Source of the DNA: a phage
Sequence record: PZ402304.1
Direction: 5' to 3' (one strand)
DNA length: 64,000 bases
Each line of letters opens with the position of its first letter. Positions within the stretch are counted from its first letter, which is position 1. A model generated the notes under the pieces. That model was given only the letters and a program-made list of their open reading frames with translations, was not told the origin of the DNA and did no database searches. This document shows, piece after piece, positions 47,246 to 47,593 of this stretch. The translations under genes and the position numbers were made by a program.

Positions 47246-47593
47246 TCAATACGGTTTAGCATCAAATTTTCTTTCAATTTCAGGCGTGAAATATAGTTCT
47301 TTACCACGCTTAGAAAAGCGACCGATAATATGATAATTATTTTCGTCGAACGTTATATTACCGAGGTCCATAGCTTTTAACCAATCATCAATACTTCTGT
47401 GCAGTTTTATATCAAAATTCCAGTATTGAGAACTATTACCACGGATACTACAAGCAGATTCAGTAAAACAACTACTATAAATCTTGTCTTTAGGAACTAC
47501 TAATTGATAGACACCTTTAATAAACTGAGGACCTTGCCACTTTGGCTGTTTCGCATCTTCTTCTAATAGAATAGGGTAATAATTAAAATTCAT
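47246..47593 (-). CDS. hypothetical protein inserted between frd and td
   Basis: 115-aa ORF; start forms ATGA overlap with frd stop; no recognizable motif. Confidence 0.6.

Follow-up and report, generated by a model that had tools for sequence, protein, structure and literature searches.

We analysed a 64,000-nt stretch of phage DNA (record PZ402304.1, hereafter the window) around an open reading frame of 115 codons, ORF115, which lies between the genes for dihydrofolate reductase (frd) and thymidylate synthase (td). This region shares 96-97% identity with RB69-like Mosigviruses, of which phage SF is the closest, and by its sequence the window phage is an RB69-like Mosigvirus. On the minus strand the genes run in the order gp32, frd.2, frd.1, frd, ORF115, td, nrdA.2 and nrdA (Table 1). 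We found that frd ends in TAT AAA TGA and that its stop shares ATGA with the start codon of ORF115 (47593-47591), and that the ATG of td follows 15 nt past the ORF115 TGA. The original prediction, which had left the strand unstated, was thus confirmed in placing a 115-aa ORF between frd and td in ATGA overlap with the frd stop, and in placing td 15 nt further on with its own AGGTG ribosome-binding site (RBS), as read from the sequence. It was also right that frd and td themselves overlap by ATGA in T4, where the sequence at this junction is GTATATAAATGAAACAA; RB69 shares the 4-nt overlap.

Table 1. Features of the ORF115 locus and its operon in the window.
Feature	Position	Strand	Remarks
gp32	49259-50158	-	followed by frd.2, frd.1
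frd.1	48180-48443	-	DUF5417
frd, dihydrofolate reductase, 195 aa	47590-48177	-	Pfam DHFR_1, E=2.9e-21; 96% nucleotide identity to RB69 frd
SD-like GAGAG in 3' end of frd	47603-47607	-	9 nt upstream of ORF115 ATG; sequence reading
Left 8-bp direct repeat TAAATGAA	47589-47596	-	edge of 363-bp cassette
ORF115	47246-47593	-	115 aa, ATG start; phrog_1928 (RB32ORF229c-like)
15-nt spacer TTATATAGGTGTTAA between ORF115 and td	47231-47245	-	cassette-borne; AGGTG at 47239-47235
Right 8-bp direct repeat TAAATGAA	47226-47233	-	spans td start codon
First ~48 nt of td, Tequatrovirus-type bases	47183-47230	-	td nt 16, 18, 19, 27, 34, 48
td, thymidylate synthase, 286 aa, uninterrupted	46370-47230	-	Pfam Thymidylat_synt, E=3e-98, full-length 1-266/266
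nrdA.2	46115-46369	-	DUF5496
nrdA	43772-46027	-	

The frd-td interval held no other ORF of at least 40 aa on either strand, and no promoter, terminator or RNA family signal of its own was found for ORF115. Between frd and td there was no terminator-like site, and promoter-like matches were not enriched. A search of Rfam over 45800-48800 at E<=1 returned a single match, a chance snoRNA hit, and no intron match for a td group I intron; frd and td are both uninterrupted. ORF115 has no paralogue elsewhere in the window.

The same operon varies at other points. An extra 81-82-aa ORF lies between frd.1 and frd in many Mosigviruses and Tequatroviruses (JK42, L003:1824-2072; WilhelmHis, L005:1651-1896) and is absent from the window (48177-48180) and from RB69, which makes the frd.1-frd junction a second variable slot. 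The nrdA.1 gene (DUF4326) is missing from the window and RB69, and is present in JK42 (L003:3765-4070) and the Tequatroviruses. The 87-nt gap between nrdA.2 and nrdA (46028-46114) contains a hairpin with a 10-bp stem at 46063-46085. A perfect GC-rich hairpin, also with a 10-bp stem (GATAGGGCTA...TAGCCCTATC), lies between frd.2 and frd.1 (48452-48479) and may serve in RNA processing or stability or as a terminator, on either strand.

Homologues of ORF115 were found in 582 phage records by tblastn with the 115-aa query. At least 99% identity was seen in 14 records, from Mosigviruses (SF, PTK, KMB38 and others); 349 records, from Tequatroviruses (T2, RB3, RB14, RB51, AR1, PP01 and others), were 90-95% identical; and 219, from phages of Klebsiella, Enterobacter, Salmonella, Serratia and Kosakonia, fell below 60%. 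Using Frd-type records as denominators (~142 of Mosigvirus type and ~540 of Tequatrovirus type), ORF115 is carried by ~14 of ~142 Mosigvirus records (~10%) and ~349 of ~540 Tequatrovirus records (~65%). The protein is 100% identical to that of SF and 93-95% identical to T2-type proteins. In Tequatroviruses the gene is named RB32ORF229c, under which it was first catalogued, and ORF115 matches the phrog_1928 HMM over its full length (E=9.2e-36, residues 4-111 against positions 2-125 of 126). The exact protein is recorded on 44 contigs, and NCBI lists it as hypothetical for the Mosigviruses SF and Shf125875. ORF115 is thus an ordinary accessory gene, already catalogued and present in hundreds of deposited records under the name hypothetical protein. 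Our search of the published literature on RB32ORF229c, phrog_1928 and the frd-td interval found nothing relevant.

To place the gene in a wider context, the frd-td synteny comparison across T-even phages that the original prediction had suggested was carried out, and it put the gene in the same slot in most Tequatroviruses and at least five further genera. Diverged homologues (25-45% identity) occupy the interval between frd and td, immediately behind frd and in most cases overlapping its stop, in Kanagawavirus CIP9, Jiaodavirus ValerieMcCarty04, Gelderlandvirus STML-198, Muldoonvirus WSPA, Marfavirus EI and a metagenomic T4-like contig. Several of these phages carry a tandem B-type paralogue of 113-119 aa (123 records), and the distant A-type and B-type members match the same PHROG, phrog_1928. 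In several of them a phrog_9550 gene (~68 aa, MSNKLKV...) stands directly before td, and in the Tequatroviruses ESh29 and probably UTI-E4 the slot holds phrog_9550 alone. The fullest order is frd, 1928A, 1928B, 9550, td, with subsets that differ by lineage; the T2 slot holds the A-type only and the T4 and RB69 slots are empty. The frd-td interval of the Straboviridae is therefore a recurrent three-family slot (phrog_1928 A-type, phrog_1928 B-type and phrog_9550; loci L006:1798-2679, L008:1801-2456, L010:1786-2656, L014:3001-3879 and L012:802-1008), and phrog_1928 is a Straboviridae-restricted family that is long-standing but optional in this interval.

These results change how the locus is to be read. 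Because homologues are so widely distributed in the frd-td slot, the ORF-bearing arrangement is the common state. The famous bare overlap of T4 is a minority arrangement in its own genus, and it may be a deletion derivative. The original prediction had described an insertion into a tightly coupled operon. That holds in so far as the ORF is extra relative to T4 and RB69, the operon is tight and the gene is a secondary acquisition in this Mosigvirus lineage, but as a general description insertion is misleading, since the ORF is widespread at the same position in its T-even relatives. It had also named, as a finding that would speak against it, a widespread ORF with an annotated function; the ORF proved to be widespread, and an annotated function was not found. 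Poor coding statistics, raised in the same connection, did not apply.

By our own arithmetic, the probability that 115 codons stay open by chance at this base composition is ~4e-4. Compared with T2 and WilhelmHis, respectively, ORF115 had dN/dS values of 0.042 and 0.059, lower than those of td (0.066 and 0.073) and frd (0.125 and 0.203). ORF115 is a genuine protein-coding gene under strong purifying selection.

Next, we examined the protein itself. ORF115 is ~13.7 kDa and mostly basic. It had no match in Pfam (E<=1), NCBIfam, PADLOC or, by profile search, the PDB sequences; the PADLOC HMMs returned 0 families at E<=1 from a library that covers defence but not anti-defence families. A HMMER search over 1.8 billion representatives gave 18 matches, of which 16 were small proteins (99-116 aa) that aligned as family members; the two long ones, a membrane protein and a GAF-domain kinase, were rejected as spurious. 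A 25-member profile retrieved solely single-domain proteins of 113-139 aa that lack Pfam matches, on contigs up to the size of a phage genome, and no fusion partners. Among the 25 members W19, G91, K95 and G97 are invariant and Q16, G27, F93 and F102 are at least 90% conserved, but no Asp, Glu or His is invariant; the sole conserved Asn, N79, falls below 90% in a wider alignment. ORF115 shares the family motifs KQxKW (L12 loop) and GRFxKxG (b4-b5 hairpin) as well as the frd-td location. The AF2 model (pLDDT 89, pTM 0.82) is a small, weakly OB-like beta-barrel with an OB-like strand order; compared with PDB structures it had no significant match, and no nuclease was among its structural neighbours. 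At most, ORF115 can be described as a small non-catalytic beta-barrel that probably functions in binding.

The junctions indicate how the gene can come and go. RB69 lacks a 363-bp segment that in the window is bounded by 8-9-bp direct repeats, TAAATGAA(A), and its empty site has a single copy; deleting one repeat and the insert from the window yields the RB69 junction. Likewise, T2 has an extra 417-bp segment relative to T4, bounded by TAAATGAAA, and once it is removed the sequence agrees with T4 across the junction at all but 1 of 48 nt. The repeats imply that precise deletion yields the empty T4/RB69 junction, or the reverse. Loss in the T4 and RB69 lineages is favoured by the deep synteny, and insertion into a T4-like junction is favoured by the ATGAAA within the left repeat of T2, where no gene starts.

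The edges of the cassette differ among phages. On the left, the ATGA overlap of the window corresponds to a 20-nt spacer with its own RBS in T2 and to an 11-nt overlap in RB3 and PTK; on the right, the spacer between ORF115 and td measures 15 nt in the window, 45 nt in T2-type and 13 nt in PTK-type phages. The window junction is compacted relative to T2, with the ATGAA of ORF115 lying right on the frd stop. Ahead of ORF115 stands the same GAGAG element that in RB69 stands ahead of td, and the compacted junctions imply that ORF115 is served by the GAGAG of RB69 td whereas td receives the AGGTG of the cassette; as judged from its position, GAGAG would act as an RBS. In RB3-type (L013:224-838) and PTK-type (L015:694-1311) phages an A-run longer by 2 nt at the frd stop extends Frd by 11 aa (to 204-205 aa) and produces the 11-nt overlap. 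The 45-nt spacer of T2 (L004:3873-3917) contains TTAGCTTCA followed 10 nt on by TATAAT, a combination lost from the compact junction of the window and which we take to resemble a MotA-box middle promoter.

We then compared the history of ORF115 with that of its neighbours. Against T2 and WilhelmHis the dS of ORF115 was 0.79 and 0.62, compared with 2.1 and 1.2 for td and 3.0 and 1.95 for frd, so that at synonymous sites it has diverged 2-4 times less from Tequatrovirus alleles than the flanking genes have. Nucleotide identity between the window and T2 follows the same order (88.5% for ORF115, 77% for td and 64% for frd). The GC content of ORF115 is 32.8%, against 38-40% in the flanks. Within td, 22 of the 33 mismatches between the window and RB69 fall inside the first 177 nt. 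At td nt 16, 18 and 19, G/T/T was found in all four ORF-bearing Mosigviruses (window, SF, PTK, KMB38) and in T2 and WilhelmHis, whereas T/C/C was found in all five ORF-less Mosigviruses (RB69, JK42, TU01, PhAPEC2, AV117). The first ~48 nt of td thus look like a flank that was transferred along with the cassette.

PTK (L015:694-2522) and KMB38 (L016:694-2522) are clear inter-genus mosaics with a T2/RB3-type left junction. Their frd is Tequatrovirus-like (94% identical to WilhelmHis and 63% to RB69), their ORF115 allele is 97.7% identical to that of the window and their td is of Mosigvirus type. In TU01 (L017:2085-2945) Frd is the nearest to that of the window (99% at the amino acid level), yet td has just 83% nucleotide identity, which implies another recombination breakpoint at the frd/td junction. 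Given the discordant dS and a Tequatrovirus-type td start confined to ORF-bearing Mosigviruses, ORF115 most likely arrived by recombination, and the sequence pattern indicates that the cassette was exchanged between co-infecting phages of different genera. A recent transfer from a sampled Tequatrovirus was rejected. The Mosigvirus allele is 87-89% identical to those of T2, RB3 and WilhelmHis, which points to a donor outside the sample or to an older transfer.

The td gene of some relatives carries a group I intron with I-TevI, and we asked how ORF115 relates to it. Mutual exclusivity was rejected, as RB3 and others carry both. In a spread sample of 60 entries 7 of the 32 ORF-bearing entries had the intron, as against 8 of the 13 entries from ORF-less Tequatroviruses (Fisher p=0.016), a small and phylogenetically non-independent sample. 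Co-conversion and T2 marker exclusion have been reviewed (PMC2988022). An association in the negative direction is what one would expect if homing by I-TevI out of T4-like donors carries along, by co-conversion, the ~550 nt of td upstream together with the junction, with SegG acting similarly from gene 32. One phage, ESh30, has an apparently short (~320-nt) td intron without the I-TevI ORF.

Two readings of the locus treat ORF115 as something other than an ordinary accessory gene. In the first, the junction is prone to recombination and the ORF is a chance insertion of recent date, a filler without function or an artefact of annotation, as could be suspected of an ORF that has no known function, is missing from the model phages T4 and RB69 and was left unannotated in the original GenBank entry of T2 (AY310907). 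This is extremely improbable: the ORF has a dN/dS of 0.04-0.06 over a dS of 0.6-0.8, shows conserved family motifs in at least seven genera, has a confident AF2 fold and is kept in most Tequatrovirus records, and these selection and conservation data effectively refute it. Alternatively, ORF115 could be a novel, very small free-standing homing endonuclease that cuts the empty frd/td junction and spreads by double-strand-break repair. GenBank records of WilhelmHis, FelixPlatter, AndreasVesalius and ValerieMcCarty04 carry the label 'putative homing endonuclease', and the gene is polymorphic between two conserved genes, has a co-conversion-like tract at the td 5' end and inter-genus exchange supported by the dS discordance, and forms an apparently promoter-less cassette within an operon, like many seg and mob genes (PMC2988022). 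However, the original prediction's statement that ORF115 lacks GIY-YIG and HNH signatures was borne out, with no Pfam match at E<=1 that would indicate GIY-YIG, HNH, LAGLIDADG, PD-(D/E)xK or EDxHD. For GIY-YIG (Seg, I-TevI) there was also no invariant Glu or Tyr motif; for HNH (Mob, I-TevIII) no invariant His, and the fold is not beta-beta-alpha-Me; for PD-(D/E)xK, EDxHD and LAGLIDADG no PDB sequence match, invariant Asp/Glu or nuclease among the structural neighbours. The protein is about half the length of any seg or mob protein, and its confidently modelled barrel has no nuclease match; its diverged homologues hold their position in at least seven genera, with tandem paralogues, unlike sporadic homing genes; and the flank tracts are explained by recombination alone or by co-conversion from the neighbouring I-TevI or SegG. 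A homing function is thus highly unlikely, and with neither a nuclease match nor an invariant Asp, Glu or His the endonuclease label, which has spread through some GenBank records, is unsupported and should be corrected.

A third reading accepts a non-catalytic protein but ties it to the dTMP module, as a partner that binds Frd or Td, or tethers them to gp32, single-stranded DNA or the dNTP-synthetase complex, and tunes nucleotide supply. ORF115 is always immediately downstream of frd in every genus examined, usually overlapping its stop, a position that implies co-translation with DHFR, and its OB-like topology, basic pI and conserved W, F, K and R residues would suit such a role. We nevertheless regard it as rather unlikely. 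The gene is dispensable, being absent from T4, RB69, ~35% of Tequatrovirus and ~90% of Mosigvirus records, and Frd and Td are 96-100% identical between ORF-bearing and ORF-less Mosigviruses, which implies no co-adaptation. ORF115 also adjoins either Mosigvirus- or Tequatrovirus-type Frd, just 58-62% identical to each other, and adjacency is weak evidence because gene order is broadly conserved in T4-like phages. An in-frame fusion on record, WP_146639004.1 (316 aa, Frd-NEITRGGN-ORF115, 2 contigs), would be a Rosetta-stone hint for this partnership if real, but it is absent from the best 25 phage records and differs from normal alleles (cf. L004:3490-3530) solely by A-run lengths; it is probably a homopolymer sequencing error.

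Collectively, these data lead us to favour as the probable explanation that ORF115 is a dispensable binding protein without catalytic function, whose translation is coupled and whose gene is moved passively, through recombination. The gene would not be self-mobile, and it most likely reached its RB69-like backbone from a Tequatrovirus-related phage through recombination in the conserved frd and td flanks, the crossover on the right falling within the first ~20-130 nt of td. ORF115 would be expressed from the prereplicative frd-td-nrdA message, with its translation coupled to frd via the ATGA overlap and the SD-like GAGAG, and the 15-nt tail of the cassette would give td its replacement AGGTG. 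The protein presumably binds rather than catalyses, serving early in infection as an accessory factor that is dispensable and specific to certain conditions. A nucleic acid, or some protein of the host or phage, would be a likelier target than an obligate partnership with Frd/Td. That ORF115 is a non-catalytic binder is, in our view, reasonably probable; a host-takeover or anti-defence-type role is a tentative possibility, and a role as an adaptor of the dNTP-synthesis or replication complex is doubtful.

We also considered whether phrog_1928, its B-type paralogues and phrog_9550 form an unrecognised functional module, widely conserved in T4-like phages, either an OB-like binder of nucleic acid or protein that is functionally tied to DHFR and thymidylate synthase or a new counter-defence factor. 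This would be surprising, but if true, its presence or absence, reshaped by I-TevI/SegG co-conversion, would add to the host-range differences between T2-like and T4-like phages. Given the recurrent slot, it would be reasonable to take phrog_1928 into a screen of T2 knockouts on a host panel. Small accessory genes shuffled by recombination are the norm in T-even genomes, and as a discovery the gene carries little weight.

Among known systems, the seg (segA-G, GIY-YIG) and mob (mobA-E, HNH) genes of T-even phages (PMC2988022) resemble ORF115 in forming promoter-less cassettes between conserved genes, in varying among close relatives, in having a converted neighbour flank and in inter-genus exchange. 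ORF115 differs from them in its lack of a nuclease motif or invariant acidic or His residue, its roughly half size, its beta-barrel and its conserved position in distant genera; its mobility would be that of ordinary recombination, possibly with I-TevI/SegG co-conversion. OB-fold binding proteins (RPA14/32, Stn1/Ten1, Teb1 and HIN domains, and RuvA domain I) also belong among the systems compared; the predicted barrel is weakly OB-like and had no significant match in the PDB. ORF115 is also comparable to the small ORFs of the 'hyperplastic' regions of T4-like genomes (Petrov et al. 2010, PMC2993671), being a small, early, lineage-variable gene that is annotated without a function and shuffled by recombination between co-infecting relatives. 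Unlike those ORFs, it sits in a conserved nucleotide-metabolism cluster, in a slot that three families recurrently occupy.
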